NCBI GenBank assembly: GCA_029269845.2
Contig: CP149973.1
Span: 1,170,001 to 1,202,000 of the forward strand
Direction of reading: 5' to 3'
DNA: 32,000 bases
DNA from: Opitutia bacterium KCR 482
GTDB lineage: Bacteria; Verrucomicrobiota; Verrucomicrobiia; Opitutales; Intestinicryptomonadaceae
Shown: positions 2,496 through 24,039 of the stretch, piece by piece
Layout: every line of letters begins with the position of its first letter
How positions within the stretch are numbered: the stretch's first letter is position 1
The notes under the pieces: generated by a model
What the model was told of the DNA's origin: nothing
The model's database searches: none
The model's input: the letters and a program-made list of their open reading frames with translations, nothing else
Position numbers and translations under genes: made by a program

Positions 2496-3245
2496 ATGAA
2501 CTGCCTGATTTTCCCAACCCCGCCCCCGTTCAAGCTTGCGCCCGACAGCCCCAAGCTCGAGCATGTCGAAAAAGTCCTAAAAGCCGCCGACGGCGGCACG
2601 GTCTTTGCGGGTCAGGCAAACGGCGGACTTTTTGTATGCAAATTCGAAAAGCTCGCCGACGGCGGCGCGACGCTCACGCCCATTTCCGACGCCCCGAATC
2701 CCGCCCCGCTCGCGGCGTCCGTCGCCGTCGCATTCGCCCGCCCGCAGATTGCCCAGCGCATGCTCTTCGAAGCCGCGTGTTTCGGTGTAGAAAATCTGCT
2801 ATTCTACGCCGCGTCGAAAGGCGAGGCAGACTACGCAAAAAGCGGGCTCTACGCGCGCGGCGAATACGCCAAATGGCTCGAAAAAGGCGCGGAGCAGGCG
2901 TGCGCGACTTCCATTCCCTCGTTCTCCACCGCGTCGAGCCTCACCGAAGCCGTCGAAATGCTCGACGCCCTCGCCCCGCGCGATTCCCTGAAAATCGCTC
3001 CCGACCTATACGAGGCAACTGCCGCTCTCCACGACGTTTTGGATAAATCTCCCGACCTCCACGTCAAGGGTATCCTCGGCAGCGAGCGCGGCTTCTCCAA
3101 CCCCGACCGCAACCTCCTCCGCCTCAACAACTACACCCTCGTCTCCCTCGGCAACCGCGTCCTCCGCACCGACACTGCCCTAATCGCCACCCTCAGCAGG
3201 GCAGGCTGCAGCCTGCACGGCACGGAACTTCGTTCCTTTCTGTGA
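2496..3245 (+). CDS. Hypothetical protein (249 aa)
   Basis: Long ORF with the GC3-rich codon usage of the neighbouring genes. I recognise no motif. The last ~15 codons are encoded by repeat copy A. Confidence 0.6.
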   Translation: MNCLIFPTPPPFKLAPDSPKLEHVEKVLKAADGGTVFAGQANGGLFVCKFEKLADGGATLTPISDAPNPAPLAASVAVAFARPQIAQRMLFEAACFGVENLLFYAASKGEADYAKSGLYARGEYAKWLEKGAEQACATSIPSFSTASSLTEAVEMLDALAPRDSLKIAPDLYEATAALHDVLDKSPDLHVKGILGSERGFSNPDRNLLRLNNYTLVSLGNRVLRTDTALIATLSRAGCSLHGTELRSFL

Positions 3246-3596
3246 TAATACGGCGCGGCTATAACCGCGCCTTTTCCCGATTAGTCCGTATTGCCTGCGG
3301 CAATTACTGGCGTTGGGATATGTGATATTGGGAAAGAAACAAATTAGAATAGACGCGCTTTGCGCGGAGAGAAAAAAAGCGGAAATCCGCAAAACATGGA
3401 ATTTCCGCTTTTTTGTAAACTTAACTTTTATCCCAGCGCAACTTAAAAATCTTCCGCGCCGTGCGCTGTAATTTTAGGGGCGTCAAAATGCCCCTATAAG
3501 AGTGGCTTTCCTGTATTCGCAGGGCGCGTGGCGTACTTTCGTACGCGAGCGGTCTGCGAATACAGGGAAACGCTGTTAGAGGGGCGTTTTCACGCC
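3201..3596. repeat. Copy A of a ~396-nt hairpin-dense repeat (candidate large structured ncRNA or structured MITE-like element)
   Basis: Collinear with 17851-18247. It has many stem-loops, several with compensatory differences between the copies, and no credible ORF. Confidence 0.7.
3372..3414. terminator. Intrinsic terminator hairpin inside repeat copy A (bidirectional in this copy)
   Basis: A7, then GCGGAAATCC/GGAATTTCCGC (10 bp with one bulge), then T6. Confidence 0.55.
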
Positions 3597-4768
3597 CCTA
3601 CCGAGGAGGCGATTTCATCACTTAGTGTGTGAGTGAAGTATTGCATTACCACTGCGTGCGACAACCTGCCCCAATGTTCGTCGTCGGAGCACGCAAGCGC
3701 GTATTTGTGCACAACTTCGTCCGCGGGTCTTTGGAATATAACCGTGTTGGAATACGGATTTTTCCACGCCTTCACGCCGCGTTTAAGCAGGGCGCGGTAG
3801 AAATATTCGGCGTTTTCGAGGACGGCGTTCGCCTGTTTGCGCATGCCCTCCCTGCCCGCGACGGATATGCGCCAGTAGAGTTTGAGGGCGTCGAAACCGC
3901 TTCTGGAACACGAAATTGTGGGAATCACCCCGTTAAGGTAGGGCACGGGGTTGTTTTGCACGTGCGACAAAATCTCCCTGCGGCAGACGAAAATTCCCGC
4001 GGGCTCGTTCAGCCCGTAGAACTTGTGCCCCGAAACGGCGATTGAGTCGAAGCCCATTACGCTTGCGTCGAGGATTTCGCGGGCTTTGGGGTCGTCGAGG
4101 AAAGGCAGATAGCCGCCAAAGAGCGCGGCGTCTAGGTGCTTGTAGACGAAGGGCGGATTGACTTTTTTGACGACCTCGTCGATTGCGCGCTGGTCGTCGA
4201 TAGCCCCCTTGAAAGTGCCGCCGATTGCGATTGCGATGAGCGCGGGACGGTCGGGCGCAAGCTTTTTTTCGAGATCGGAGACGTCCATTTCGCCCGACTC
4301 GTGGGCGCGGATTGTGCGCGTTTCGATGTCGAGAATGTCGCCGAGTTTCTTGACCGAATAGTGGGCCTCGTCCGAAACGTAGAGGACGGGCGGAATGTCC
4401 GACTTCGCCGCGAGCGCGGTTCTGCCGAAATAGACGCCGTGCATGTTGCCGTCGGTGCCGCCGTTTGAAATCACGCCCCAGTGGTCGCCGCCGAAGCCGA
4501 AGGAGTCGGCGACAAAGTCGATGCACGCGCGTTCGAACTCGTCGGTGTGGAGCATGTCCCACTGCGTTTTGTAGGGGTCGCCGACGTTGATGAGGGTGAG
4601 GTCGCACAGCCCCGTATCGACGAGCCACTGGTAGAAGCCCGCGAGGCTCGTTTCCTGGTCGAACGGATAGCCAAGCTGCTCGAACTTGCGCGCGCGCAGG
4701 TTTGCGGCAAGCGCATCGAGTTTCTTCATTGCTTCGGCATTCGGTTTTTTGAATCTTTCCATGGACAT
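3590..4768 (-). CDS. PLP-dependent group II decarboxylase, histidine decarboxylase-like
   Basis: SGHKF PLP-lysine motif, GGTDGNMHG, HYSVKK, and HLDAALFGGYLPF. The length (392 aa) and motif order match Gram-negative PLP histidine decarboxylases. Confidence 0.8.
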   Translation of the reverse strand: MSMERFKKPNAEAMKKLDALAANLRARKFEQLGYPFDQETSLAGFYQWLVDTGLCDLTLINVGDPYKTQWDMLHTDEFERACIDFVADSFGFGGDHWGVISNGGTDGNMHGVYFGRTALAAKSDIPPVLYVSDEAHYSVKKLGDILDIETRTIRAHESGEMDVSDLEKKLAPDRPALIAIAIGGTFKGAIDDQRAIDEVVKKVNPPFVYKHLDAALFGGYLPFLDDPKAREILDASVMGFDSIAVSGHKFYGLNEPAGIFVCRREILSHVQNNPVPYLNGVIPTISCSRSGFDALKLYWRISVAGREGMRKQANAVLENAEYFYRALLKRGVKAWKNPYSNTVIFQRPADEVVHKYALACSDDEHWGRLSHAVVMQYFTHTLSDEIASSVGA

Positions 4769-4879: not shown

Positions 4880-6127
4880 ATGAGGACATTGTTTACGGCG
4901 GTCATGCTTGCGGTCGCGGCGGCGCAGGCGTTCGGGGTTTCGGCGGAAAAAATCGCCGACGCCGAACGCGTGATGTGGTCGCGCTTCTTCGTTCCCAAAA
5001 CAAAACTTTTCTACGAATGCCTAAGCTCGTTCGACGAAAAAACCTGCCAGAGCCATCTGCCGACGGCGGAGGAGGTCGGGCGGCAGTACCCCAATCCGTG
5101 CGGATACGCCACGGGAATGGAAGACTGCGCGATTCTCGGCGGAACGGTTCTCGCCGCGCTCGCCGACAAATACGAGATGTCGCCCGACCCGCAAACCGCC
5201 GCGCGCGCAAAGCTCGTCGCCGAGGGGCTTGAAAGCCTCGTGCTTCCCGACGGGTTCGTCGCCCGCGGGCTGTGTGTAGAGGACGGCAGGAGCGTATACA
5301 TAAATTCGTCGGTAGACCAGTACACGCACTGCATTCACGGACTTTGGAAATACTGCAAAAGCGCGGTGTCCGACGCCGAGGGGCGCGAGCGGGCGAAAAA
5401 CGCGCTGATAAGAATAGCCGAACGCCTGCGCAGAAACGTGGTCGCCGAGAACGACTTCGACTCCCTGCGCCTCGACGGCAAGCCCTGCGCCCTCCGCATA
5501 AGCCGCTTCACGACGGAACGCCCGCATGTCGCCGCGCGGCTTTCGATGGCGTACGCCGCCGCGTGGGACGTTTCGGGAAAGCCCGAATATTACTCGCTTT
5601 ACAGAAGCGGAATCGGGGAAGCGATCGCCGTTTCGGAGCGGATAAAAATCGCGCCGTACACGCCGATTTACTCTTTTTTGCAAATGCAGATTTCGCTCGA
5701 ACTGCTGTGCGAAACCGAGAGCGACCCCATGCTGAAATCGCGGATAGAAAAACTGATGTCGAAGCTGCCGAAGCTGTGCGCCGAACTCGCGCCGAGGCTC
5801 GAAAAACGCTTCGACGCCGCCGAGCTTGAAACGCCCTACGGCGACTGGCGCAGGCCCGAAAAAACGGAAGTCAGAAACGGCTACAACATACCCAAGCTCG
5901 GAAAGTCGCGCGATGTCTGGCGGACAATACGCGACACGGGAGAAATCGCGCTCGTTGCGGCAATCGCCCCGCGCGGCGAAATTCCCGAACCGATAGAATC
6001 GCTCTACGAAAAGGCGGTCGCAAAAATCGACTACGACAAATGCGCAAGCTGCGGGGCAATCTACCACTGGGCGGCGTTTGTGGAGCTTCAAAAACGCGCA
6101 AAAAACCGCGCCTCCGAAACGCGATAA
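4880..6127 (+). CDS. Secreted hypothetical protein (415 aa), largely helical, possibly a six-hairpin glycosidase-like fold
   Basis: Internal ATG at 4880 gives the signal peptide MRTLFTAVMLAVAAAQAFG. The track ORF start at 4481 lies antisense within the decarboxylase gene. Confidence 0.65.
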   Translation: MRTLFTAVMLAVAAAQAFGVSAEKIADAERVMWSRFFVPKTKLFYECLSSFDEKTCQSHLPTAEEVGRQYPNPCGYATGMEDCAILGGTVLAALADKYEMSPDPQTAARAKLVAEGLESLVLPDGFVARGLCVEDGRSVYINSSVDQYTHCIHGLWKYCKSAVSDAEGRERAKNALIRIAERLRRNVVAENDFDSLRLDGKPCALRISRFTTERPHVAARLSMAYAAAWDVSGKPEYYSLYRSGIGEAIAVSERIKIAPYTPIYSFLQMQISLELLCETESDPMLKSRIEKLMSKLPKLCAELAPRLEKRFDAAELETPYGDWRRPEKTEVRNGYNIPKLGKSRDVWRTIRDTGEIALVAAIAPRGEIPEPIESLYEKAVAKIDYDKCASCGAIYHWAAFVELQKRAKNRASETR

Positions 6128-6234
6128 ATGCAGGATTCCTGCCGAAACGCGCCCGAAAAAAAACGCTGCAAGGCGGGGACATTCAAAGCGGCGCGGGCGG
6201 CGCGAAACCCGAAAACGCGTCCGCGTTCATTAGC

Positions 6235-7815
6235 CTATTTTTTCAGGGGTTTGAAAGACTTCGGCGCAATGCCAAGCTGCGCTATTTTGTAGTTTAAAAT
6301 GCGGCGCGAAACCGAAAGCTGTCGGGCTGCGGCGGAGGCGTTGCCGCCGTTTGCCGCAAGGACTTCCACGATGATTTCGCGCTCGAATTCGGCAACCATC
6401 TTGGCGAAGTCTATGTTCTCCTCCGTTTTCAGTTTGGAGGTATTTGTGGACTGCGGCGTTTGGAGCGACGGCGGCAAGTCGGACTCGGTAATCGACTGCC
6501 CCGCCGCGATTATCACCGCGCGTTCTATACAGTTTTCAAGCTCGCGCACGTTGCTCGGCCAGTGGTACGCGCAGAGCATGTTCATTGCGCCCGCGCTGAT
6601 TGAAATCACTTTTTTGCCGCGCAGACGCGCGTGTTTTTGGAGGAAGAATTTTGCGAGCGCGGGAATGTCGCGGCGGCGGCGGCGCAGGGGGGGAATCGAG
6701 ATTGTGAAAATCGAAAGCTGGTAGTAGAAGTCGGGGCGGATTATGCCGTCGCGCATGCGCCCCTCCAAGTCGCCCGAAGTGGAGGCGATTATCCGCGCGG
6801 AGGATTTCAGCGTCTCCGTTCCGCCGGAACGCACATATTCGCCCGACGCCAGATATTTCAGAAGCTTTATTTGAAGCGGCTTGCCGATAAGCCCTATCGA
6901 GTCGAGGTAGACAATGCCGCCGTCCGCCTTTTCGAGAAGCCCCGTGCGGCGGGGGCTGTCCGCGCCGAAAAGCTCGGCGTCTATGAGCGAGTCGCGCATG
7001 GTGGAGCAGTCGAGAATTTCAAGCGGCTTGTCCTTCCAGCGCGGGCGGTTTGCGATTGCCCGCATGGCGAAATCCTTGCCCGCGCCGACCTCCCCGCGCA
7101 CGAGAACGTGCGAATTCCCCTCGCCCGCCTTCGCGATAAGCTCGTATGTTTTAATCATCGCGGCGGTGTTGCCTATCGCGTTTTCGGGGCGCAGTTGGAG
7201 GTCGATTTTGTTGCGCAGCTCGCGGTTTTCGGAGTTGAGCTTTTCGGTCTCCTCGCGCTCCAAGAAAAGGACGGTCACGGCGTCGGAAATGATGTTGGCG
7301 ATTGTTTCGAGAAGTTTGAGGTCGCGCCGCAGGACGTATTTTGTGGGGTCGGTTCTGTCTATGCTGAGAGTTCCGATGACGTTGCCCCTGCTGAAAATGG
7401 GCACGCAAAGGAAGGCGGTTTTGGACGACATCGTGCGGCTCAGCGTGCGGTTGAGGAAGTCGGGGCTTTTGGAAATGTCGGGCACCACGCGCGAGACTCC
7501 CCGCGCGGCGACGTCGCCCGTAACGCCCTCGCCCATGCGGTAAACGCCGCGCTTGCGCTCTTCGTCGCTAAGCCCGTGCGAAGCGCAGATTGTGAGCAAA
7601 TCGCCGTTGCGCAGGGTTACCGTGCCGCGCGTGAGGTTCATGCGGTCGAAGAGAATGTCGAGCACTTCGCGCAGAAGCAGCGAGACGTCCTTCATGCGGA
7701 CGGCGGTCTTGCTGATGTCGTGCAAAACCGACACGACAAGCCCGCGCGCGCGGCGGTTTGCCGCGTTTTTGGAGCGGGGCGCAAGCCCGTCTTTTGTGTC
7801 CTTTGTATCCGACAT
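6235..7815 (-). CDS. GAF-domain / AAA+ / Fis-type HTH transcriptional regulator (bEBP family, GAFTGA loop missing)
   Basis: N-terminal GAF-like region, Walker A GEVGAGKD, Walker B GGIVYLDSIG, the R-finger region, and a C-terminal HTH AAARQLSVSRRILNYKIAQLGI. Confidence 0.85.
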   Translation of the reverse strand: MSDTKDTKDGLAPRSKNAANRRARGLVVSVLHDISKTAVRMKDVSLLLREVLDILFDRMNLTRGTVTLRNGDLLTICASHGLSDEERKRGVYRMGEGVTGDVAARGVSRVVPDISKSPDFLNRTLSRTMSSKTAFLCVPIFSRGNVIGTLSIDRTDPTKYVLRRDLKLLETIANIISDAVTVLFLEREETEKLNSENRELRNKIDLQLRPENAIGNTAAMIKTYELIAKAGEGNSHVLVRGEVGAGKDFAMRAIANRPRWKDKPLEILDCSTMRDSLIDAELFGADSPRRTGLLEKADGGIVYLDSIGLIGKPLQIKLLKYLASGEYVRSGGTETLKSSARIIASTSGDLEGRMRDGIIRPDFYYQLSIFTISIPPLRRRRRDIPALAKFFLQKHARLRGKKVISISAGAMNMLCAYHWPSNVRELENCIERAVIIAAGQSITESDLPPSLQTPQSTNTSKLKTEENIDFAKMVAEFEREIIVEVLAANGGNASAAARQLSVSRRILNYKIAQLGIAPKSFKPLKK

Positions 7816-8920: not shown

Positions 8921-9033
8921 GCCCGCCGCGCCCAAAATTCCGACGCGCAGACGCGCAGAATACCCGTTTGCGCAAAACATACCCGTTTTTTAGTTTGGAC
9001 AAAATCGGGACAAAATGCGATAATCTTCAATCT

Positions 9034-11079
9034 ATGAAGAAGAAATACGCTTTGTTGGGGAAGATTTTCGCCGCCGCCGCATTCGTTCTCGCGCTGGCCG
9101 GCTGCGAAGAAAGAGGAATCACAATTTACGACGCGTCAAACTCTCCCGACGGCAAGCCGTTCGAGCTTACGCGCAAAACGCCGCTGGTAGTCAACGGCGA
9201 ATGGGACTTGTCGAAAAACCTCGACTTCCTCGTGGAGTTCGAAAGCGTCGGCGAATCCGGCGACGTTGTGAGAATCAGAATCAACGACGGCACGGCGACG
9301 GAGCGCGACGGAAACCCGTCGGTCGCCTCCTACCGCGTCGCCAAGGGCGAAAAAGGCTCGGCGGTAATCTCCTACCCGCCCGTACCCGCGCACCCAGAAA
9401 TTCTCGACGACATGAAAATCATGCGCACAAACCCGTTCTTCCGCGGCGACAGAATTTCGTTCCCGAAAGACTTTTCAAAAATCAAAAGGCTCACAATGTT
9501 CTCGCGCAACGCCGGCGCGAAAATCAGGATAAAGAAAATCGTAGCCCTCGACACTTCGGCGAAAAAATACCCCGAATACTTTTCGTACACAAGGGAGCAG
9601 TTCTTTCCGTTCATCGACAAATACGGACAGTTCAAATTCGGCGACTGGAAAGGGAAAATCCGCACCGACGCCGACATCAAAAAGGCGGTCGCCGAAGAAG
9701 AGAAAGACCTCTCCGCAAACCCGCAGTCGCCCGAAGGCTGGACAAAATACGGCGGCTGGGCGAACGGCCCGAAGTTGGAGGCAACGGGGCACTTCCGCGT
9801 GCAAAAAGTGGACGGCAAATGGTGGCTCGTAGACCCCGAAGGCAGGCTGTTCTGGTCGCACGGCATAGTCAGGGTCTCTCCGTCGAGCGCAATCACGCCC
9901 CTCGACGGACGCGAATACTACTTCGAAAACCTCCCCAAGAAGGACGACGAATTCGCCCTCTTCTACACGACAAAAGACGAGCTTCTCGCGCCCTACTACA
10001 CCAAGCGCGGACTGAAAAAAACCTACGACTTCTCCGCCGCAAACATCTACCGCAAATACGGCAAACAGTGGCGCGAAAAATTCGCCGACTCCGCACACCG
10101 CAGACTCCGCAGCTGGGGGCTTAACACGATAGCGAACTCGTCCGACTCTTTCATATTCCTTCAAAAAAAGACTCCCTACGCCGAACGCTTCGAAATCCAT
10201 TCGCGCCCGATTTCAGGACACGAAGGCTGGTGGTGGCCGATTGCCGACCCGTGGGACGCGTCGTTCGTCAAAAGCATAAACGACAACCTCGACCGCCGCG
10301 CCGAACAGCTCGAAGACCCGTTCTGCATAGGCTATTTCGTGGACAACGAGCACCACTGGGGCAGCCCAGATACGATTGGCAGAAATGTATCGATTTCGCC
10401 CGCCGACCTGCCCGCAAAAATCGAGTTCGCAAAAGACCTCAAAGCCAAATACGGCGACATCGCCGCGCTCAACAAGGCATGGAAGACAAACTTCAAATCG
10501 TGGGACGACTTCCTCGCCAACGACAAAAACCCCGTAAACGCCGACAAAAAAGACCTCTCCGCGTTCTCCGAAAAATTCATCGGCAATTATTTCAAAACCA
10601 TTCGCGACACAATCAAGGCGCGCGTGCCGCACATGCTCTACATGGGCTGCCGCTTTGCGGGGTCGAACGAAATCGCGCTGCGGCAGGCGGGCAAATACTG
10701 CGACATCGTAAGCTACAACCGCTATTCAGACTCTCTCGCAACGCTCAAGCTTCCCGAAGGCGTGGACAAGCCAATCATGATTGGCGAATTCCATTTCGGC
10801 GCGCTCGACAGGGGGCTTTTCCACCCGTCGCTGGTGCTGGTGAAAGACCAGAAAGACCGAGGACAGCACTACTACGACTACGTCAAATCGGCACTTGAAA
10901 ACCCCGCAATAGTGGGCACACACTGGCACCAGTTCTCCGACCAGTGCACGGCGGGACGCTTCGACGGCGAAAACTTCCAAGTGGGCTTCACCGACGTCGC
11001 CGACCAGCCCTACCCCGAAACGATAAACAAAGCGCGCGAAATAGGCTATAAACTCTATAAAACGCGCTACGGGAAATAA
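9034..11079 (+). CDS. Exported (lipoprotein) TIM-barrel glycoside hydrolase with an N-terminal beta-sandwich domain (clan GH-A-like; family not assignable by eye, agarase/GH50- or GH42-like)
   Basis: Lipobox LALAGC after the internal ATG at 9034. Candidate catalytic motifs are FVDNEHHWG and MIGEFHFG. It is a paralog of 20405..22594. Confidence 0.8.
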   Translation: MKKKYALLGKIFAAAAFVLALAGCEERGITIYDASNSPDGKPFELTRKTPLVVNGEWDLSKNLDFLVEFESVGESGDVVRIRINDGTATERDGNPSVASYRVAKGEKGSAVISYPPVPAHPEILDDMKIMRTNPFFRGDRISFPKDFSKIKRLTMFSRNAGAKIRIKKIVALDTSAKKYPEYFSYTREQFFPFIDKYGQFKFGDWKGKIRTDADIKKAVAEEEKDLSANPQSPEGWTKYGGWANGPKLEATGHFRVQKVDGKWWLVDPEGRLFWSHGIVRVSPSSAITPLDGREYYFENLPKKDDEFALFYTTKDELLAPYYTKRGLKKTYDFSAANIYRKYGKQWREKFADSAHRRLRSWGLNTIANSSDSFIFLQKKTPYAERFEIHSRPISGHEGWWWPIADPWDASFVKSINDNLDRRAEQLEDPFCIGYFVDNEHHWGSPDTIGRNVSISPADLPAKIEFAKDLKAKYGDIAALNKAWKTNFKSWDDFLANDKNPVNADKKDLSAFSEKFIGNYFKTIRDTIKARVPHMLYMGCRFAGSNEIALRQAGKYCDIVSYNRYSDSLATLKLPEGVDKPIMIGEFHFGALDRGLFHPSLVLVKDQKDRGQHYYDYVKSALENPAIVGTHWHQFSDQCTAGRFDGENFQVGFTDVADQPYPETINKAREIGYKLYKTRYGK

Positions 11080-11967: not shown

Positions 11968-11980
11968 CGCAGAATTTCTA

Positions 11981-12327
11981 CCCTACCCCACCCGTCGGGT
12001 CAAGAAATACCGCCAACAATCATCGAGCAAAAGCAACGCAGGCATAACGAGACAAACGACGTACGCGTGTAAATATTCCCTCCTACACGAAAATGAAGCA
12101 CGACAAATAAAATGCCGCCCCAGCCACACAAACGCAGGACAAACAACATAAGCGTACTACCTACCCTACGAATAGGAATGCGACAAAGCAGAATTCCCCC
12201 AACCGAGCAAGGACAAACAACAACGCAAGCGCGGCAATTTCCGCCGCAAAACATAAACGAATCGGCATAAGCTATCGCCCCTCCCAACGCGAAAGCGCAA
12301 CAAGCGAAATACGCGCCCGCCCCACCC
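11981..12327. other. Strongly strand-asymmetric tract, A+C-rich on the plus strand and G+T-rich on the minus strand
   Basis: My counts: 12001-12060 is A28 C17 G11 T4, and 12181-12240 is A24 C19 G12 T5. The tract is bounded by the near-repeats CCCTACCCCACCC (11981-11993) and CCCGCCCCACCC (12316-12327). Confidence 0.6.
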
Positions 12328-12354
12328 ACGCGAGAGCGAAGCGACTCGCGCCTC

Positions 12355-12390
12355 GACGGAAACGAAATGCTCCTCGTTTTCGTTTCCGTC
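12355..12390. other. Perfect 13-bp hairpin
   Basis: GACGGAAACGAAA, a 10-nt loop, then TTTCGTTTCCGTC. Confidence 0.6.
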
Positions 12391-12397
12391 CTCCTTC

Positions 12398-12424
12398 GTG
12401 CGCATTAAGCGCACTCTGTTTTTC
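12398..12424 (+). terminator. Candidate plus-strand terminator, the first of three ATTAA-loop hairpins
   Basis: GTGCGC-ATTAA-GCGCAC followed by TCTGTTTTTC. Confidence 0.4.
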
Positions 12425-12512
12425 ATCTACTCATAGGAATGTGGTGAGCTACAAATGCAAAAAAATCCGACGCAACCGCAGCACCCCACAAAAAATATCA
12501 CCATGTAATATT

Positions 12513-12564
12513 AAAAAAACGCGATATTTCGGACAGCGTGAAAGTCCCAAATATCGCGTTTTTT
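12513..12564. terminator. Long bidirectional intrinsic terminator
   Basis: A7, then CGCGATATTT-C-GGAC-AGCGTGAAA-GTCC-C-AAATATCGCG, then T6. Confidence 0.7.
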
Positions 12565-12617
12565 CGCTAAACCTCCCGCGCGGCGGCTGCCGCGCTGTCG
12601 AGGCTTGCGAGGTTGCA

Positions 12618-12905
12618 CGCAGAAATGCGGCTTTGCAAAGCAAGGCGACGGGAGTGTACTCTCGTACATGACCGAAGCCGCGCGAGCGAAACGCATTTAT
12701 ACGCCGACCCCGCAAGCCCTCCTAAATCTCCTTGCACGCATTAAGCGTGCCATCACTATCCCGCAGAAATGCGGCTTTGCAAAGCAAGGCGACGGAAGAG
12801 TACTCTCGTACATGACCGAATCCGCGCAAGCGAAACGCATTTATACGCCGACCCCGCAAGCCCTCCTAAATCTTCTTGCACGCATTAAGCGTGCCAACAC
12901 TACCC
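12618..12905. repeat. Tandem repeat, 2 x 144 nt, structured units
   Basis: Units 12618-12761 and 12762-12905 differ at about 7 positions. The array abuts the stop codon of the lipoprotein gene at 12907. Confidence 0.9.
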
Positions 12906-12906
12906 C

Positions 12907-13902
12907 CTACTTTTCGGAGAATCCGTCCGGCAGGAACCATCGCGCCTTGTAGATTCTGCCGCCGTCAAGCGTCCCGACCCTGCGCGTTTTCGACGCGCCG
13001 AACGACACCGATGCGCTCCACCATTTGACTTCGGGTATGAGCGAAATTATTTCGCCGTCGGGCGACGAAAGCGACACGCTTTTTATCCGCCCCACCCCGC
13101 ACACGTCGGCGAATTTGCGCGAGACGGAATCGAAAAGCACAACGCCCTTATGCCCCGTAATAAACATGATTTTCGACGACGGCAACGGGTACAAATCGTG
13201 CCCGACTACCGCTTTTTCGGGCAGCGGATATTCGGCGGTTTTTTCGAGTTCGGGCGAATCGGAGTCGAAGTTGTATTTGTAGGCTTCGAGAGTCTTTTTG
13301 CCAAGCGCCCACAAAATTTTCTGCGAAGCGTCCCACACCACGCCGTGCGCAAATTCGAGCGGATACGTTTTTTTCGACGCGCACGGAACGCCCTCCGCCG
13401 CGTTTTTTGCCGCAAAAACCGTCAGCATGTTGCCGTCGGACGACGCAACCGCGATATTTCCGTCGGGAAGCAGGCATGCAGAATGCACGTTCCCGCCGGC
13501 GTACATAAAGCGAACAACGCGCGAATCGCGCACGCGCACGAGCGCAACGCCCCCTTTCGACGCCGCGACTAAAACGTGGGTCGCGCCGAGCACCGGCTTT
13601 GCGTCGCTGGGATTGCCGAACCATTCGGCGTATTTCACGGGCATTCCGTCCGCCTTCAAGGGGTTCCAGCTCCACAAAACGGCGTCGGGAGAATTCCAGT
13701 CTTTCGAGGAGTCCAAAAGCAGAATTCGGCGCGATGCCTGTTCGGAGGCGAGCACTGCGGGAAGATTTTTTACGTCCACCGCCGAAGCGTCCGACATCTT
13801 CGCCGAAACGAACACTGCGGTTTCCTCCAACGAACGCTCGCCGACGCACGCCGAAAGCAGCGATACCGACGCCGAGGCAAGAAGCAGCGCAATCAGTTTC
13901 AT
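12907..13902 (-). CDS. Lipoprotein (331 aa), probably beta-rich or propeller-like, hypothetical
   Basis: Internal ATG at 13902 gives MKLIALLLASASVSLLSAC with a canonical LSAC lipobox. This ATG overlaps the upstream gene's TGA (ATGA). The track ORF extension to 14580 is an Arg-rich out-of-frame overlap. Confidence 0.75.
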   Translation of the reverse strand: MKLIALLLASASVSLLSACVGERSLEETAVFVSAKMSDASAVDVKNLPAVLASEQASRRILLLDSSKDWNSPDAVLWSWNPLKADGMPVKYAEWFGNPSDAKPVLGATHVLVAASKGGVALVRVRDSRVVRFMYAGGNVHSACLLPDGNIAVASSDGNMLTVFAAKNAAEGVPCASKKTYPLEFAHGVVWDASQKILWALGKKTLEAYKYNFDSDSPELEKTAEYPLPEKAVVGHDLYPLPSSKIMFITGHKGVVLFDSVSRKFADVCGVGRIKSVSLSSPDGEIISLIPEVKWWSASVSFGASKTRRVGTLDGGRIYKARWFLPDGFSEK

Positions 13903-15988: not shown

Positions 15989-16822
15989 TCAGTGCTCCCT
16001 GAGGTATTTCAGATTTTTTTCAATAATCGGGAAGGAATCCCTGTATGTGCCGTCCTCTATCACGAAAAATCCGTCGAAGCCCTGCGAATCCACCTCTTTC
16101 AGAATCGCCTCCATGTCGAGAACGCCCTCGCCGTAGACCGCGCAACCGCTTTTGAGGTCGCCGAATTTCTGCTGGTCTTTGAGGTGTATTTCGATGAGCT
16201 TGCCGCGCACGCTCTTGAAACCGCCCACGACATCAAGCCCCGATCGCGACCACGCGCCGTTGTCGGCGCAAATGCCCACGTTTTTGTAGTCTTTGAGGAT
16301 AGTCATCAGGAACGCGGGGTCGAAGTGGCGGTAGGCGGGGTTGTCGGGCTTGCGCTCGTGCGAATGCAATGCCATTTGCAGTCCGTACTCGGCGCAGATT
16401 TTGTTCCAAATCGGAATGGTGTCCTCCATAGCCTCGGTGACGACGGTCCTTGCGCCCATTTCAGCCGCGAACTCGCAAACCTTGCGGATATCGGCTTCGG
16501 TCTTGCCACCCACGCAGCCGTACGAAACCATCTGAATGCCGTTGTCGGCGAGAAGTTTTTTTGCGAACGCCTTTTGCTCGGCGGTCATGTTGTGGCTGAA
16601 TTTTGCGTTGGGCAGTTTGTCGGAAAGAGACTGGCCGGGGTAGCATTCAACATACTTCACGCCCATCTTCGCCAATCGTTCGACGGAATAGTCGAATTTG
16701 TGGAAGTGCGTAGACCACATCTGAACCGCAATCTTGCGCGGCCGTTTTGTTTCGGCCGACATGCACGAGCAAAGCGCGAAAACCGCCGAAACCGCCGTCA
16801 AGACAAAGAGTAATTTTTTCAT
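15989..16822 (-). CDS. Exported sugar phosphate isomerase/epimerase family protein (xylose isomerase-like TIM barrel), paralog 1
   Basis: Signal peptide MKKLLFVLTAVSAVFALCSC. Clearly paralogous to 16974..17804 and 18265..19086 (shared KKLLADNGI, ALH(S/N)H and LHFKD/IHLKD motifs). Confidence 0.85.
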   Translation of the reverse strand: MKKLLFVLTAVSAVFALCSCMSAETKRPRKIAVQMWSTHFHKFDYSVERLAKMGVKYVECYPGQSLSDKLPNAKFSHNMTAEQKAFAKKLLADNGIQMVSYGCVGGKTEADIRKVCEFAAEMGARTVVTEAMEDTIPIWNKICAEYGLQMALHSHERKPDNPAYRHFDPAFLMTILKDYKNVGICADNGAWSRSGLDVVGGFKSVRGKLIEIHLKDQQKFGDLKSGCAVYGEGVLDMEAILKEVDSQGFDGFFVIEDGTYRDSFPIIEKNLKYLREH

Positions 16823-16916
16823 GGTAGCAGTCTACAAAACCGGCGCGGGGAATCAAGGCCAAACGTCGCGAACGGTGGAAAAGTCAAAATAGTGAAAGGA
16901 CGCGGCTACAGAGCAC

Positions 16917-16942
16917 AAAAAAGGCGCGGAATCGACCGCGCC
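16917..16942 (-). terminator. Rho-independent terminator after the 16974..17804 gene
   Basis: Read on the minus strand: GGCGCGG-TCGATT-CCGCGCC followed by T6. Confidence 0.7.
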
Positions 16943-16973
16943 CGAAATTTCGAAAGCCGAAGCGAAAGGATTT

Positions 16974-17804
16974 TTAGTGCGAGCGCAAGTACTCCACGCA
17001 CTCTTTGACTTCCGCGAGGTTGTTCGCAAAATTGTCCTCGTACTCAATCATGAAGTAGCCGTCGTATTTCTGGCGGTCGAGTTCCGCCAAGAGCGCGGGC
17101 AGGTCGAGAACGCCCTTGCCGTATGGAACGGTCTTCGCTTTGAGGTCGTCGAACTTGCTCATGTCCTTGAAGTGGAGCATTGCGATTTTCCCCTCCAAAA
17201 TCTTGTACGCCGCGACGCCCTGAATGCCCGAACGCGCGTAGTGCCCGTTGTCGGGGCATGCGTAGACGTTTTTATAGTCGCCGATTGCCGCGCGGGTGAT
17301 GTTCGGGTTGAAGTAGGAGTTGCGCTTTACGATGTCGGAAGCGTGGTTGTGGAGAGCCATTTTCAGACCGTACTGCTGGCAGTATTTGTCCCATAGCCCG
17401 ATTGTGCTGCCGACGGATTCCGTCAGAATCAGCGGAATGTCGAACTCTTTTGCGAATTCGCACATTTCCTTGATTTTCGCCTCTTCCGTGGGAGTGCGCA
17501 CGCCGAAGCTTGCGATTTTTATGCCGTTGTCGGCAAGAAGCTTTTTCAGATACGCCTTCTGCTCGGCATTCATCTCGGGCCCCGTCTTGACCTTCGGGAA
17601 TTTTGCGCTAAGCGCGGTGCTCGAAAGCCCGATTGCGTCCACCCCCATGTCTTTGAGAAGCGGAATAACCTCGTCGAGATTGCGCTTGTAGAACGTGAAC
17701 ATTGCCACGCCCACTTTGCGTTGCGGTTTTGTTTCCCCCTGCTTGCTCGGACAGCACCCGAACATAAGCAGAGCAGCCATCATGTATATCAATACTCTCT
17801 TCAT
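16974..17804 (-). CDS. Exported sugar phosphate isomerase/epimerase family protein (xylose isomerase-like TIM barrel), paralog 2
   Basis: ATG at 17804 gives MKRVLIYMMAALLMFGCC. The track start at 17825 is a GTG. Confidence 0.85.
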   Translation of the reverse strand: MKRVLIYMMAALLMFGCCPSKQGETKPQRKVGVAMFTFYKRNLDEVIPLLKDMGVDAIGLSSTALSAKFPKVKTGPEMNAEQKAYLKKLLADNGIKIASFGVRTPTEEAKIKEMCEFAKEFDIPLILTESVGSTIGLWDKYCQQYGLKMALHNHASDIVKRNSYFNPNITRAAIGDYKNVYACPDNGHYARSGIQGVAAYKILEGKIAMLHFKDMSKFDDLKAKTVPYGKGVLDLPALLAELDRQKYDGYFMIEYEDNFANNLAEVKECVEYLRSH

Positions 17805-17850
17805 ACGTTTGAGATATTGAACCACCCCAGCCTAAAAAATCAAGCCTAAA

Positions 17851-18247
17851 GCAGGCTGCAGCCTGCACGGCGTCGGAACTTCGTTCCTTTCTGTGATAAT
17901 GCGGCGCGGGTATACCCGCGCCTTTCCCCGTTTAGTCCGTATTGGCTTCGCCAATTACTGGCGTTGGGATTATTTTATGTTGGGAAGAAACGAATTAAAA
18001 TAGACGCGCTTTGCGCGGATAAATAAAAAACGGAAAACCTAAAACAAAGGTTCTCCGCTAACTCATTAACTAAACTTTTATCCCAGTGCACCCTAAAAAA
18101 CTTCGTGCGCCAGCACTCACTTATTAGGCGCGTCAAAATGCTTTCATAAGGGTGGCTTTCCTGTGCACGCAGGGCGCGTGGCGTACTTGACGTACGCGAG
18201 CGGTCTGCGGGTACAGGGAAACGCCCTTAGGGAAGTATTTTCACGCG
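17851..18247. repeat. Copy B of the ~396-nt hairpin-dense repeat
   Basis: Collinear with 3201-3596 in the same orientation. The flanking sequences are unrelated. Confidence 0.7.
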
Positions 18248-18264
18248 CCGTCTCGCGCCGTATC

Positions 18265-19086
18265 TTAATGGTTGCGCAGATAGTTCAGACACTCCTTGAC
18301 TTCCGCCAAGTTGTCTTCGAACTTTGTTTCGTACTCAATGATAAAGAAGCCCTTGTATCCCTGTCTGTCGAGCTCGGCGAGCATGCCCTTTGTGTCGAGA
18401 ACGCCCTTGCCGTAGACGGCGGGTTTGTTCTTTGCGCAGATTTCGGACAAATCCTTGAAGTGGACAGACGAGATTTTACCTTCGTAGGTTTTGAGGGCGT
18501 CAATCGGGTTTATGCCCGCGCGCGCCATGTGCCCGACGTCGGGGTTCATCTTGACGAATTCATAGTCTTTCACGAGCGGGAAAATATACGCGGGGTTCCA
18601 ATATTTGTTCGGGCCGTTGTGGTTGTGGATGCCCATTGTCACGCCGTACTTTTTGCCGACCTTTTCCCAAACGGGGAAAAGCCCTACGGGGCATTCGGTT
18701 AAAACGCGGTCGCAACCGAATTCCTTAACGAATTTGCAGAGGTCTTCGATTTCCTTTTCGTTGTTGGCGTACGCCACGCCGAAGCTTACGAGTTTGAGGT
18801 TCGCGTCTTTGAAGAGCTTTTTCATGAACGCCTTTTGCTCTTCGGTCATGTACTGGTTTGTGAGCACTCCGGGGAATTTGTCGCTGAGGCGCTGCTTGGG
18901 GTAGCACTCGACGCCGTCGAGACCCAAGTCTTTGACTTTATTGACGGCTTCCTCCAAGGTGAACTTGTTGAAAGTGTACATCTGCACCGCGACGTTGCGG
19001 TGTTTGGGTTGTTGTTCGGTTTTTTCGGACGACGCGCAGCCGAAAAGCAGCGTCGCCATTGCGAGTAAAGCGATAATTTTTTTCAT
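18265..19086 (-). CDS. Exported sugar phosphate isomerase/epimerase family protein (xylose isomerase-like TIM barrel), paralog 3
   Basis: Internal ATG at 19086 gives MKKIIALLAMATLLFGCASS, a lipobox-like LFGC. The track extension to 19227 adds a non-signal leader. Confidence 0.85.
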   Translation of the reverse strand: MKKIIALLAMATLLFGCASSEKTEQQPKHRNVAVQMYTFNKFTLEEAVNKVKDLGLDGVECYPKQRLSDKFPGVLTNQYMTEEQKAFMKKLFKDANLKLVSFGVAYANNEKEIEDLCKFVKEFGCDRVLTECPVGLFPVWEKVGKKYGVTMGIHNHNGPNKYWNPAYIFPLVKDYEFVKMNPDVGHMARAGINPIDALKTYEGKISSVHFKDLSEICAKNKPAVYGKGVLDTKGMLAELDRQGYKGFFIIEYETKFEDNLAEVKECLNYLRNH

Positions 19087-19228
19087 ACGGGTAGAAAAAA
19101 TGGCGTCGGGACGCAACTCTTGCAAGGCAATTTTGTCGAAACTGAAAAAAAATGCTTCACAAAACTGGAAAAAATCGAAAGATTGGAATCTACTTTTAGC
19201 AATCCATATAACAACAAAAAAAGGCACA

Positions 19229-20404: not shown

Positions 20405-22594
20405 ATGAGAAAGAAACTGCCGACACTCGCGGCGGCGTTGCTCTTCGCCGCCCTGCCCGCGCTGGGCAACATGGAAACGGTTTTCGAGGAAGACTTCGAA
20501 AATCCCGAAACGAGCAAATTCGCGGAAGTCGCAAAATTCGAGCCTGAAATCGCCACGGAAGTCGCGGGCAGCAAGGCGATATCGGGCAACGGCTCGATGA
20601 TGTTCGACACGCGCGGAAAAAACTGGGGCTGGCAATCTATATGCACCATTCCGCTGAACAAGGAGGGAATTTACAGACTCTCGCTAACATGCAAACTGCT
20701 CGAAACCGAAAATAACAAACACGTGGCAGTCGCAGTCGCCATGCGCGAAATCAAGAACGGGGAAAAGACGCGCATCTCCGCCCGCTGGATTCAGAAAGAC
20801 AACAAAAAGGACCATAAAAAAGCGCAGAGAATAGAAGTCGCCGGCAGGCTTCCGTCAAATTCGGGCGAATTCGACATCGTCGCCGAGCGCGGAATTAAAA
20901 TCGAAATCGACGACATCAAAATCGAAAAATTCACCGCCGACCCCAAGGGCGCGTGGATGTTCGACAACGACGCGTTCATCGGCATGACATTCACGCCCGC
21001 CAACCCCGAATTCCACAACTTCAAGGAGAAATTCCTGAACTACTCGAAGGAGGAGTTCTTCCCGTTCATCGACAAGTACGGACAATTCAAACACAAAGAC
21101 TGGATTGACAAAATCACCTGCGACGAAGACTTCGCAAAACGCATGGAGGCGGAAAAGAAGTTCTACAAGAAAATCGGAAAAATCCCCAACCGCGACCAGT
21201 TCTGCGGGCTCGTTCGGGAAGACCAAAAATACGAAGCTACGGGGCACTTCCGCGTGCAGAAAATCGACGGCAAATGGTGGTTTATCGACCCCGAGGGCAA
21301 CCTGTTCTGGTCGTTCGGCATAACCTGCGTCGGCAACCTCGACCTCACGCCGATTACCGACCGCGAATCGTACTTCGAAGACGTCTCCGACAAACGCTTC
21401 ATGAAAAAATCGAACTGGGGACTGCACTACTATAAAGACAAAGTTTACGACTCCTACGGATTCCTCGAACGCAACCTCGTGGCGAAATACGGCGACAATT
21501 ACAGGGAAGTTTACGGAGACGTCTCCGACGAGCGCATGCGCATGTGGGGCTTCACAACCTACGGGTGCTGGTCGCAACACTACATCATAAGCAGGGGCAA
21601 CTTCCCGTTCACGGCGATTGCGACGTCGGGCAAGGCGGAAAGCTTCAAGACCGACGTAAAAATACACGCATATTGGCGCGACTTCCCCGACTTCTTTACG
21701 CCCAATTTCGAGGAAAACACCTTCAAACGCGTAGCGCAGCTTTCCAAACTCATAAACATGCCCGCATGCGTCGGCGTGTTCGTGGACAACGAACTTCCGT
21801 GGCAGTTCAAGCCGCTGACGACAATCAGGGCGCTGCTCGGCTGCCCCGCGACACAGTATTCGAAAATCGAATTCCGCAAGGATTTGGAGGCTAAATACGG
21901 CACAATCGAAAAACTCAACGAAGCGTGGAACGCAAAATACGCAAGCTGGGACGACTTCCTCGCCAAGCGCGACTTCTTCCCGAGAACAAAGGCGGGCGAA
22001 ACCGACATGCTCGCATTCGAGGAGAAAATCTACGTCCGCTACTTCAAGACCTGCCGCGACGCAGTAAAGGCGGCGGCTCCGAATACGCTGTATCTCGGCT
22101 GCCGCTTCGCGTGGAGAAATACGCTTGTAGAGAAGGTCGCCTCGCGCTACTGCGACGTCATCAGCTACAATGTATACTCCGACAACATTACAGCATTCTC
22201 GCCCGTGAAGGGCTGCGAAGACAAACCGTCGCTCATCGGCGAATTCCACTTCGGGAACACCGACAAGGGCGTGTACGGCGGCGGGCTCAATCCGCGCGTG
22301 ACGGTCGAAGCCCGCAAAAAGGCGTTCGAAAACTACGCAATCAGCGCATTCGAAAACCCGAATGTCGTGGGAGCGCACTGGTTCCAATGGTTCGACCTTT
22401 GCACGGCGGGACGCTTCAACGCAGCAAACTACGCAATCGGCTTCGTGGACATCTGCGACACGCCCGACTACGTGATAGTGAAAGCCGCCCGCAAGCTCTC
22501 GCAAAAGATGTATAAACTAAGACTCAAAGGCGGACAAAGCACAACCCAGAGCGTGGAATCGACAAAAGCCGTCATCGACCTCGACGAAAAATAA
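20405..22594 (+). CDS. Exported TIM-barrel glycoside hydrolase, paralog of 9034..11079
   Basis: Signal peptide MRKKLPTLAAALLFAALPALG. Shared blocks include FFPFIDKYGQFK, ATGHFRVQK(I/V)DGKWW, FVDNE, IGEFHFG and CTAGRF. Confidence 0.85.
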   Translation: MRKKLPTLAAALLFAALPALGNMETVFEEDFENPETSKFAEVAKFEPEIATEVAGSKAISGNGSMMFDTRGKNWGWQSICTIPLNKEGIYRLSLTCKLLETENNKHVAVAVAMREIKNGEKTRISARWIQKDNKKDHKKAQRIEVAGRLPSNSGEFDIVAERGIKIEIDDIKIEKFTADPKGAWMFDNDAFIGMTFTPANPEFHNFKEKFLNYSKEEFFPFIDKYGQFKHKDWIDKITCDEDFAKRMEAEKKFYKKIGKIPNRDQFCGLVREDQKYEATGHFRVQKIDGKWWFIDPEGNLFWSFGITCVGNLDLTPITDRESYFEDVSDKRFMKKSNWGLHYYKDKVYDSYGFLERNLVAKYGDNYREVYGDVSDERMRMWGFTTYGCWSQHYIISRGNFPFTAIATSGKAESFKTDVKIHAYWRDFPDFFTPNFEENTFKRVAQLSKLINMPACVGVFVDNELPWQFKPLTTIRALLGCPATQYSKIEFRKDLEAKYGTIEKLNEAWNAKYASWDDFLAKRDFFPRTKAGETDMLAFEEKIYVRYFKTCRDAVKAAAPNTLYLGCRFAWRNTLVEKVASRYCDVISYNVYSDNITAFSPVKGCEDKPSLIGEFHFGNTDKGVYGGGLNPRVTVEARKKAFENYAISAFENPNVVGAHWFQWFDLCTAGRFNAANYAIGFVDICDTPDYVIVKAARKLSQKMYKLRLKGGQSTTQSVESTKAVIDLDEK

Positions 22595-23958: not shown

Positions 23959-24039
23959 TTCGGCGAAAGGATTGCCGTTTTCTTGCCGCGGCTTGGCGGA
24001 AGGGTTGCCGCCCTCTTGCCGCAATTTGGCGGAAGTTTG
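23959..24039. repeat. Short tandem repeat, about 2.5 copies, period 33-34 nt
   Basis: TTCGGCGAAAGGATTGCCGTTTTCTTGCCGCGGC, then TTGGCGGAAGGGTTGCCGCCCTCTTGCCGCAAT, then TTGGCGGAAG. Confidence 0.7.

Follow-up and report, generated by a model that had tools for sequence, protein, structure and literature searches.

The stretch of DNA analyzed in this work (the window) comprises 32,000 nt of Opitutia bacterium KCR 482 (contig CP149973.1, positions 1,170,001 to 1,202,000), and at 12618-12905, next to the stop codon of a lipoprotein gene, it carries two tandem structured units of 144 nt. The number of units differs among strains, and the units are part of a larger hairpin module that recurs 3' of the stop codons of other genes. 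The reading that we favor, and to which we would give about an even chance, is that the array represents a copy-number polymorphism within a dispersed hairpin module of 3' untranslated regions (3' UTRs) in Candidatus Merdousia, a gut Verrucomicrobiota lineage (Opitutales). Such a module would resemble the repetitive extragenic palindromes (REP), the bacterial interspersed mosaic elements (BIME) and the enterobacterial repetitive intergenic consensus (ERIC) sequences.

The tandem array and its copy number among strains

A preliminary description of the window had proposed two head-to-tail units of 144 nt with about seven differences. Direct comparison gave exactly 7 substitutions, Tandem Repeats Finder delimited the region 12618-12906 (period 144, 2.0 copies, 95% matches, 0 indels, score 529), and a separate repeat search returned the pair 12618-12761 and 12762-12905 as 95% identical. 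The array begins 1 nt past the stop codon (12907-12909) of the gene 12907..13902 on the minus strand, which encodes a DUF6528 lipoprotein (Pfam E 2.6e-37) and whose start codon shares an ATGA with the stop codon of a 657-aa gene. About 55 nt separate the end of the array from a terminator at 12513-12564, so that the structured units lie, as had been suggested, in the 3' UTR position between the lipoprotein stop codon and a terminator on the sense strand. The 90%-identity cluster of the lipoprotein contains 91 sequences, one of them annotated as Candidatus Merdousia sp. (Verrucomicrobiota, Opitutales, Intestinicryptomonadaceae). The two units are as follows (the hairpin P0 and the rod are described in the next section).

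12762..12905, minus strand: proximal 144-nt unit, adjoining the lipoprotein stop codon; hairpin P0 and the inner rod, without an outer 3' arm of its own
12618..12761, minus strand: distal 144-nt unit; its orthologue is the sole unit in the single-copy strains L010, L013 and L014

The helices that had been listed for each unit are all present, including AAATGCG (12623-12629) with CGCATTT (12692-12698), GCTTTGCAAAGC, GTAC-TCTC-GTAC and GCACGC-ATTAA-GCGTGC. The letters of a proposed GCTTTG/CAAAGC hairpin were also found; nevertheless, they are not conserved (GCATCG and GCTGCA in other copies) and form part of a long rod and an internal loop. Rfam gave 0 matches over the window at gathering thresholds, and with an E-value threshold it returned only generic hairpin-like matches far below gathering (e.g. 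MIR949, 27 bits versus 100). No match to the repeat family was obtained in phage, plasmid and viral collections.

When the number of units was compared between strains, 1, 2 or at least 3 units were observed, which makes the array a variable-number tandem repeat (VNTR). One unit is present at the lipoprotein locus in L010, L013 and L014, and two units are present in the window and in at least 10 other assemblies (including L001, L003, L011, L012, L015, L016, L018 and L019); the occurrence of the two-copy form in many independent assemblies indicates that it is not an assembly artefact. At least three units were found in L017, the contig end of which falls inside the third one, and in L005 two units are followed by a second copy of a module of ~438 nt (unit, GC hairpin, terminator and segment S) with 86% identity. 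Many contigs break 39-73 nt into the first unit, and the repeat explains these assembly breaks just 3' of the lipoprotein gene. Because the proximal and the distal copies are each orthologous across strains, the duplication predates the divergence of these strains. It may have arisen by unequal recombination or replication slippage, involving P0 together with the rod except for its outer 3' arm, and it is probably near neutral. The range from 1 to at least 3 units provides a VNTR-like marker for strain typing.

The rod and the module that contains it

The 144-nt unit is a duplication boundary and not a folding unit or functional element, because the outer 3' arm of the rod lies outside the unit and the proximal copy is devoid of that arm. 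The complete hairpin and the other parts of the module are listed below.

12601..12719, minus strand: complete 119-nt rod-like hairpin of ~44 bp with the apex GTAC-GAGA-GTAC, from the RNAalifold consensus (10 copies) and the folding of the single-copy form
12734..12750, minus strand: hairpin P0 of the distal unit, GCACGC-TTAAT-GCGTGC (minus-strand reading), overlapping a sigma-54-like TGGCACG-N4-ATGC at 12738-12752
12878..12894, minus strand: hairpin P0 of the proximal unit
12578..12595, minus strand: GC-rich hairpin H, GCGCGGC-AGCC-GCCGCGC (minus-strand reading); among copies the loop varies and the stem is kept
12513..12564, both strands: bidirectional intrinsic terminator (A-tract, 21-bp stem, T-tract; inverted repeat I3, 95% complementary) at the 3' end of the module
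12340..12512, minus strand: segment S, with a conserved promoter-like block TTGCAT...TATGAG and the hairpins S1 and S2; common to the copies at guaA and at a leuC-like gene
12398-12414, minus strand: hairpin S1, GTGCGC-TTAAT-GCGCAC
12352-12390, minus strand: hairpin S2

On the minus strand, the basic module thus reads P0, 119-nt rod, H, bidirectional terminator and segment S. The outer helix of the rod, GGGCTTGCGGGGT / ACCTCGCAAGCCT, extends 17 nt past the 144-nt unit. A covariance model, R1, was built from twelve rods of this kind (type A) only, leaving out two 396-nt elements of the window that are considered below; it scored 150.8 bits on the rod 12601-12719 and 89.5 bits on the proximal copy at 12740-12866, where the outer helix is unpaired. 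The consensus fold of 10 copies (RNAalifold) comprises 75 pairs. Among 16 distinct 144-nt variants, the polymorphic sites fall at 6 of the 86 paired and 11 of the 58 unpaired positions (Fisher p = 0.036). Four of the six paired sites swap Watson-Crick and G.U pairs on the sense strand, and the other two (unit positions 85 and 107) break pairs, both in proximal-type copies. The most variable site is the apex loop (GAGA, GGGA, GTGA, GCGA, GGAG and GGGG), and in P0 the loop likewise varies (TTAAT, TCAAT, ACAAT) and the stem is kept. Identity among module copies is 95% for the rod, 92% for the terminator, 88% for P0, 83% for the S hairpins, 81% for H, 74% for the spacer and 62% for the tail, and S2 displays two compensatory pair changes between copies (ACGGAAACG/CGTTTCCGT versus ACGTGAACG/CGTTCACGT; window, L016, L053 and L005).

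S1 has the same loop as P0 on a different stem, and the series S1, GGAGG, S2, GC hairpin corresponds in its arrangement to P0, GGAGG, rod, H. The palindromic octamer CCGCGCGG, which occurs in hairpin H and in several coding regions, has 16 sites in the window versus 5.3 +/- 2.4 expected (e.g. at 12576, 15955 and 30708). Beyond segment S, the minus-strand stretch 11968-12340 (~370 nt) is G/T-rich (A 11%, C 18%, G 34%, T 37%), with no convincing ORF (open reading frame) and with degenerate copies of a motif like TCGCTYTCGCGYKGGGWGGGG. A stretch of this type is found 3' of the module at every locus, in two unalignable haplotypes and with indels among strains; it is not simply a 5' leader, because at guaA it reaches the stop codon of a convergent gene. 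At the right end of the module, similarity fades into this hypervariable tail.

The units may also be read on the opposite strand, where the plus-strand ORF 12605..12952 (115 aa) would encode a repeated peptide of 48 aa, 144 nt being 48 codons with the frame kept. The frame is indeed open through both units, and public gene calls include ORFs of this sort on the antisense strand of the units (P0094-P0099; L011, 10951-11792, minus strand; L017, 10951-11340, minus strand). However, at least 5 of the 7 differences between the units change an amino acid, the polymorphic sites are distributed 7:4:6 over the three codon positions, the start codon is TTG, the called ORFs (77-194 aa) contain no Pfam domain, and the frame is antisense to and overlaps the lipoprotein gene. 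We therefore regard a coding function as highly improbable and these calls as spurious; gene callers produce such ORFs from the repeats, and the ORFs are a useful handle for finding copies. A diversity-generating retroelement and a type III toxin-antitoxin repeat array were discarded, the former because the substitutions between the units show no specificity for adenine and the vicinity contains no reverse transcriptase gene, the latter because the downstream genes differ between loci.

Alternatively, each unit might be a small-RNA gene, with a sigma-54 promoter over P0 and an RNA of ~215 nt (rod and H) running to the terminator, in which case the duplication would have generated two promoters. 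The window contains just two matches to TGGCAC-N5-WTGC (TGGCACGCTTAATGC), at 12738-12752 and 12882-12896 on the minus strand, each of them heading a unit at its 5' end, versus 0.11 expected; the GG and GC of this motif are invariant in all variants, an activator gene (GAF, Sigma54_activat AAA+ and HTH_8) is located 5 kb away at 6235..7815 on the minus strand, and the strong terminator lies 3' of the units. The sigma-54-dependent GlmY/GlmZ and Qrr1-5 are multi-copy RNA genes of ~100-200 nt with a -24/-12 promoter and an intrinsic terminator, and the units resemble them in having TGGCACG-N4-ATGC at the head of each copy and an intrinsic terminator. They differ in that the putative promoter is one motif coinciding with the perfect hairpin P0, which is enough to explain its conservation, and in that related rods are devoid of it: the type-B and CAG:312 rods described below begin at the stop codon and have neither P0 nor a sigma-54-like motif. 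Moreover, the TTAAT loop recurs in the paralogous hairpin S1, which has no GG, and the -12 element is ATGC rather than TTGC, with no other sigma-54-like site in the window for comparison. Taken together, these features make a sigma-54-dependent RNA gene improbable, although less so than a coding function.

Dispersed copies, related rods and the guaA 3' end

The preliminary description had linked the units to the lipoprotein operon. The element is, in fact, not specific to this operon, as copies are also located 3' of guaA and of a leuC-like gene. At L028, a unit with 95% identity lies 3' of an aconitase-family (leuC-like) ORF whose TAG stop falls inside the unit start, and H, the terminator and S come next. 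At L034, a unit begins 3 nt past the TAA stop of guaA and is followed by a second unit, and a metagenome scan provided L051, in which guaA is again followed by a unit. A protein-database search with a spurious plus-strand ORF recovered L053, where the locus is guaA-[U-H-T-S]-[U'-U-H-T-S] (U, unit; T, terminator), with three units. The presence of the module, with a ~95% identical rod, 3' of the guaA and aconitase-family stop codons identifies it as a dispersed repeat. Furthermore, since L053 and the lipoprotein-locus contig L015 come from the same sample with similar coverage (~220x), one genome has the module at at least two loci. The unit is 93.8% identical between two lineages, whereas the last 300 nt of the adjoining guaA are ~70% identical.

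The genome scans used one genome per species. A scan of 185,579 species genomes with a three-anchor motif gave 0 matches, and other copies have different apex loops. A second scan returned 27 stretches, only 2 of which align beyond the pattern, both from Opitutia bacterium UBA4654 (a fragmented metagenome-assembled genome); the other 25 were discarded as chance matches in unrelated phyla. The lipoprotein homologues with 47-54% identity (P0002, P0003 and P0005) are in non-syntenic contexts and have no unit downstream. In L051 (ERZ772831 NODE-12027, coverage 2.3), the single unit joins guaA to a 272-aa gene that in the window is found downstream of the lipoprotein locus, a junction produced either by recombination between dispersed units, which would have rearranged the locus, or by chimeric assembly at low coverage.

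As counted from genome fragments, type-A rods occur at 3 loci and type-B rods, those of the 396-nt elements, at 3 loci. All copies lie 3' of a stop codon in the orientation of the upstream gene, and the rod starts 0-13 nt from the stop codon at every locus seen. The neighboring genes are co-directional (12907/11967 and 18265/17825) or convergent (3245/3590 and, in L053, 5393/6677), and tandem modules were found in L005, L053 and L065. The repeated entity is not the rod alone but a mosaic of at least 527 nt.

The rods of the two 396-nt elements in the window are the following.

3473..3602, minus strand: rod of 396-nt element copy 1 (type B), overlapping the stop codon (3590-3592) of a pyridoxal-phosphate (PLP)-decarboxylase gene
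18123..18253, minus strand: rod of 396-nt element copy 2 (type B), beginning 12 nt past the stop codon (18265) of an AP_endonuc_2-family gene

From a core order shared by the units and these elements, all of them had been proposed to form one family. The order GGCTTT..GTACTYTCGTAC..GAAACGC indeed occurs three times in the window (3504-3573, 12629-12694 and 12773-12838), versus 0.00 expected from shuffles, and R1 matched both elements at full length on the same strand, with 49.2 bits (E 3e-9) at 3473-3602 and 35.1 bits (E 4.5e-6) at 18123-18253, both on the minus strand, the best unrelated hairpin in the window scoring 17 bits. Because any long hairpin gains some covariance-model score, the rods of the 396-nt elements were also compared with shuffles that preserved base pairs and composition; global alignment gave z 4.3 (0 of 2000 shuffles) for copy 1 and z 3.7 (3 of 2000) for copy 2. 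When sequence alone was used, the similarity of unit and element cores was not significant (Smith-Waterman with dinucleotide shuffles, p ~0.07; no nhmmer match of a rod profile), so that the relationship is detected only by the structure-aware tests. The two rod types have in common GCGTTTC, the apex GTAC-GNRA-GTAC and AAAGCC. In contrast, the view of the units as miniaturised versions of the elements is wrong because the rods are similar in size, the type-A rod with its 3' flank measuring 119 nt and those of the 396-nt elements 127-131 nt. A comparison of type-B rods between loci and between strains showed 17 of 45 pairs to be changed on both sides with pairing kept, and the fact that whole rod cores are common to different loci in different strains points to gene conversion.

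GTAC as an invariant apex motif was rejected, since it covaries to ATAC/GTAT in some type-B copies and its frequency in the window is ordinary; a broader model of the type-A, type-B and CAG:312 rods was also abandoned because the MAFFT alignment was inconsistent with the structure. The far end of the 396-nt element (3199-3290, plus strand) contains a hairpin GCAGGC-N4-GCCTGC, a hairpin GGAACTTCGTTCC and a terminator GGCGCGGCTATAACCGCGCC-TTTT, and taken on the plus strand it has the form of a 3' module for a convergent RsmE-like gene. Copy 2 lies between two of three paralogous genes for xylose-isomerase-like TIM-barrel proteins (AP_endonuc_2) at 15989..19227 on the minus strand. The intergenic region with this copy measures 500-701 nt in a comparison of L012, L014, L015 and L019 (~5440-6160) with L010, L011 and L013; as one rod was detected per strain in this variable region, another sub-module appears to have been gained or lost.

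The guaA 3' end was compared in three related lineages, with GuaA identities of 96%, 91% and 88%. In the most distant one, CAG:312 (88%), a rod of 129 nt starts from the guaA stop codon (R1 38.8 bits, E 1.7e-6; apex GTAC-TAAWW-GTAC) and is followed by a terminator. Two of the loci, L065 and L067, have identical GuaA, and their rods possess common outer stems and apex with different but paired middles. The 91% lineage has a plain terminator only, in a spacer of 60-80 nt after guaA, and the 96% lineage has a spacer of 359-546 nt with hairpin modules of a different kind and of differing length; one of them (L056-L060, 4040-4160) is similar to the far end of the 396-nt element, with 79% identity over 52 nt (E 5e-6). 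This comparison across lineages indicates that rods have been gained, lost and swapped over time. Where a rod is present, the three rod types follow one order, i.e. stop codon, rod, ~45-60 nt and an intrinsic terminator on the sense strand. In CAG:312, arrays of ~33-nt hairpin units (CTTCAATGGAAGCGGCACTGCCGCC) come after the guaA rod and terminator (L067, 4290-4420; L065, 4590-4680). A tandem repeat with a 33-nt period (2.2 copies) at 23962-24035 of the window (GGCGGAAGGATTGCCGCCCTCTTGCCGCAACTT) is possibly related to these arrays.

The single orientation of rods of 119-131 nt that start at stop codons, together with the common outer stems and apex and different centre in L065 and L067, raised the question of whether they are recombination sites like the attC sites of integrons, which are imperfect palindromes of up to ~140 nt directly 3' of a stop codon, conserved at the ends and variable in the centre. 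However, the ends of the rods (GGGCTTGCG.../...CGCAAGCCT, GGTAGGGGCG.../...CGCCCCTAAA and TTTGGCGAATGC.../...GCATTGCGCCAAA) contain no AAC...GTT pair and thus lack the paired R''/R' core sites (RYYYAAC...GTTRRRY), there is no cassette array, and no integrase gene was found in any flank examined. The upstream genes, guaA (located behind the rpoA-rplQ cluster) and the aconitase-family gene, are, moreover, core housekeeping genes whose synteny is conserved. A nature as attC-like sites is, in our view, very hard to credit.

Regarding other features of the window, two paralogous GH42-like glycosidase genes (8968..11079 and 20405..22594, plus strand) share DNA blocks with 70-82% identity ~11.45 kb apart. 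Several palindromic tetranucleotides are avoided (observed versus expected: CTAG 1 versus 27, GATC 4 versus 78, CCGG 29 versus 205, GGCC 35 versus 175), GTAC not being among them, which suggests restriction-modification pressure.

Function, spread and comparison with known systems

The architecture of the module, with a stop codon followed by a rod and a terminator, leads us to infer its transcription as part of the upstream operon, whose 3' UTR it would form. The rod, H and the terminator would then form a heavily base-paired mRNA 3' end that could end transcription and protect or process the mRNA, by analogy with the REP, BIME and ERIC sequences of proteobacteria, and the copies would be homogenised and exchanged by gene conversion. 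To cover the units, a plus-strand transcript would have to be initiated in the interval that separates them from the terminator, and it would continue in antisense direction into the lipoprotein gene.

Several observations weigh against the reading as a 3'-UTR module. The sense strand is not favored by folding, as the single-copy element folds with -91.3 kcal/mol (z -3.4) in sense and -94.2 kcal/mol (z -7.1) in antisense, and for the type-B and CAG:312 rods the antisense fold is the more stable one by 10-21 kcal/mol. Choosing the strand by folding energy or by counts of G.U versus A.C appositions was given up because the rod types contradict each other. No two-sided covariation was found among the type-A copies, which are too alike. 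The terminator hairpin alone should suffice for a 3' end, which leaves the need for a 119-nt rod unexplained, and the rod is dispensable, given that guaA of one related lineage (P0128) is followed by nothing but a plain terminator. The exact adjacency to stop codons could also stem from a mobile element that inserts specifically there, and not from a role of the RNA.

This last point leads to the alternative that the repeat is selfish, non-autonomous mobile DNA, such as REPINs, miniature inverted-repeat transposable elements (MITEs) or palindrome-associated transposable elements (PATEs). In that case, the rod would be a single-stranded DNA hairpin or a cruciform for a transposase encoded elsewhere (a REP-associated tyrosine transposase, RAYT, or another HUH enzyme), its location after stop codons would stem from target preference or from harm elsewhere, and the RNA structure would be a by-product. 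Copies ~94-95% identical at unrelated housekeeping loci, compared with ~70% for guaA coding sequence between lineages, would fit such an origin, as would the presence or absence of the rod at the guaA 3' end among related lineages, the lack of a consistent strand bias of G.U versus A.C appositions across rod types, the clustering in tandem and the breaking of assemblies in the repeat. On the other hand, no transposase was found in the window or any flank examined, neither a target-site duplication nor terminal inverted repeats could be defined, the rod is better conserved than the neighboring segments within a module that is itself the repeated mosaic, and ~3 loci per type are known, from genome fragments. 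We consider mobile DNA a possible explanation, but a less likely one than a 3'-UTR module.

A further possibility, which we regard as unlikely, is that the rods are an undescribed class of elements installed specifically at stop codons, either a mobile hairpin with an enzyme targeting the first bases after the ORF or a conserved 3'-UTR RNA device of ~120 nt. Such a device might act with the terminating ribosome, RNase III or a double-stranded RNA-binding protein, and it would have been kept at guaA across gut Opitutales genera and diversified by the exchange of rod cores between copies.

With regard to known repeats, the RAYT-associated REPs of E. coli and Pseudomonas are imperfect palindromes of 20-40 nt that carry GTAG or CGTC as an unpaired terminal tag and number tens to hundreds of extragenic copies, and two inverted REPs can fold into a single long hairpin. 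REPs are described as lying for the most part 3' of coding regions, with unidirectional or convergent ORFs on either side, and as often forming inverted dimers in larger structures (PMC3733652). They and BIMEs also form mosaics with other motifs and clusters of variable copy number, with proposed roles in mRNA 3' protection and termination (in part PMC3733652). The Merdousia repeat shares this location and clustering, with all its copies 3' of a stop codon, unidirectional or convergent neighbors and tandem clusters; like REP, BIME and REPIN sequences it is extragenic and palindromic, and one type-B rod has REP-like terminal hairpins, one of them tagged with GTAG. The start of this rod, GTAG and GGGGCG-TGAAAA-CGCCCC, and its end, the inverted partner, resemble the layout of an inverted REP dimer (PMC3733652), which speaks for the mobile-DNA alternative. 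The tag is, however, not conserved. Type-B copy 1 begins with GTAG and GGGGCGTGAAAACGCCCC and its partner end is TTAG, copy 2 has GAC/TTAG, and the type-A units start with GGGTAGTG or GGATAGTG, 4 nt ahead of P0, most type-A copies having GATAG. Long rods are present in all types, and self-palindromic ends occur only in type-B copy 1, the others showing long-range pairing only. No RAYT (Y1 HUH transposase) was found in the window or the flanks examined, which represent part of the genome. Unlike REP and BIME sequences, to which its sequence is unrelated, the type-A rod is a single irregular hairpin of 119 nt, not visibly two REPs of 20-40 nt, an intrinsic terminator and additional hairpins belong to the module, which is at least 0.5 kb long, and the copies are strictly adjacent to stop codons and strictly oriented.

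The rod also resembles the ERIC (or intergenic repeat unit, IRU), Correia (NEMIS), RUP and BOX elements, imperfect palindromes or MITEs of 100-160 bp in families specific to a species or genus, in being an imperfect palindrome of ~125 nt that would form a rod if transcribed as part of a 3' UTR or an operon. ERIC and Correia elements have known effects on mRNA stability and processing. They occur in both orientations, whereas the Merdousia copies are all in the orientation of the upstream gene, starting from its stop codon, with the rod embedded in a larger conserved module. As for MITEs, which are bounded by terminal inverted repeats and a target-site duplication, the left junctions of five contexts showed no common duplicated target, and no terminal inverted repeats were found. 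The mycobacterial interspersed repetitive units (MIRUs) are units of 40-100 bp with small ORFs overlapping the flanking stop and start codons, not long hairpins. The Merdousia repeat is similar to MIRU-type VNTRs in its tandem intergenic units, its several loci within or after operons and a copy number that varies by strain, but its unit is a fragment of a hairpin module for which coding is disfavored.

The repeat thus constitutes a new family of a kind that is well known among bacterial intergenic repeats, and structured repeats of this sort are hereby recorded for an uncultured lineage of gut Verrucomicrobiota. Two traits stand out, namely the strictly stop-adjacent position and the retention of a rod 3' of guaA in different genera. 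The order conserved across three diverged rod types, together with the exchange of rod cores, makes this family a tractable case for distinguishing REP-like selfish DNA from a domesticated 3'-UTR device.

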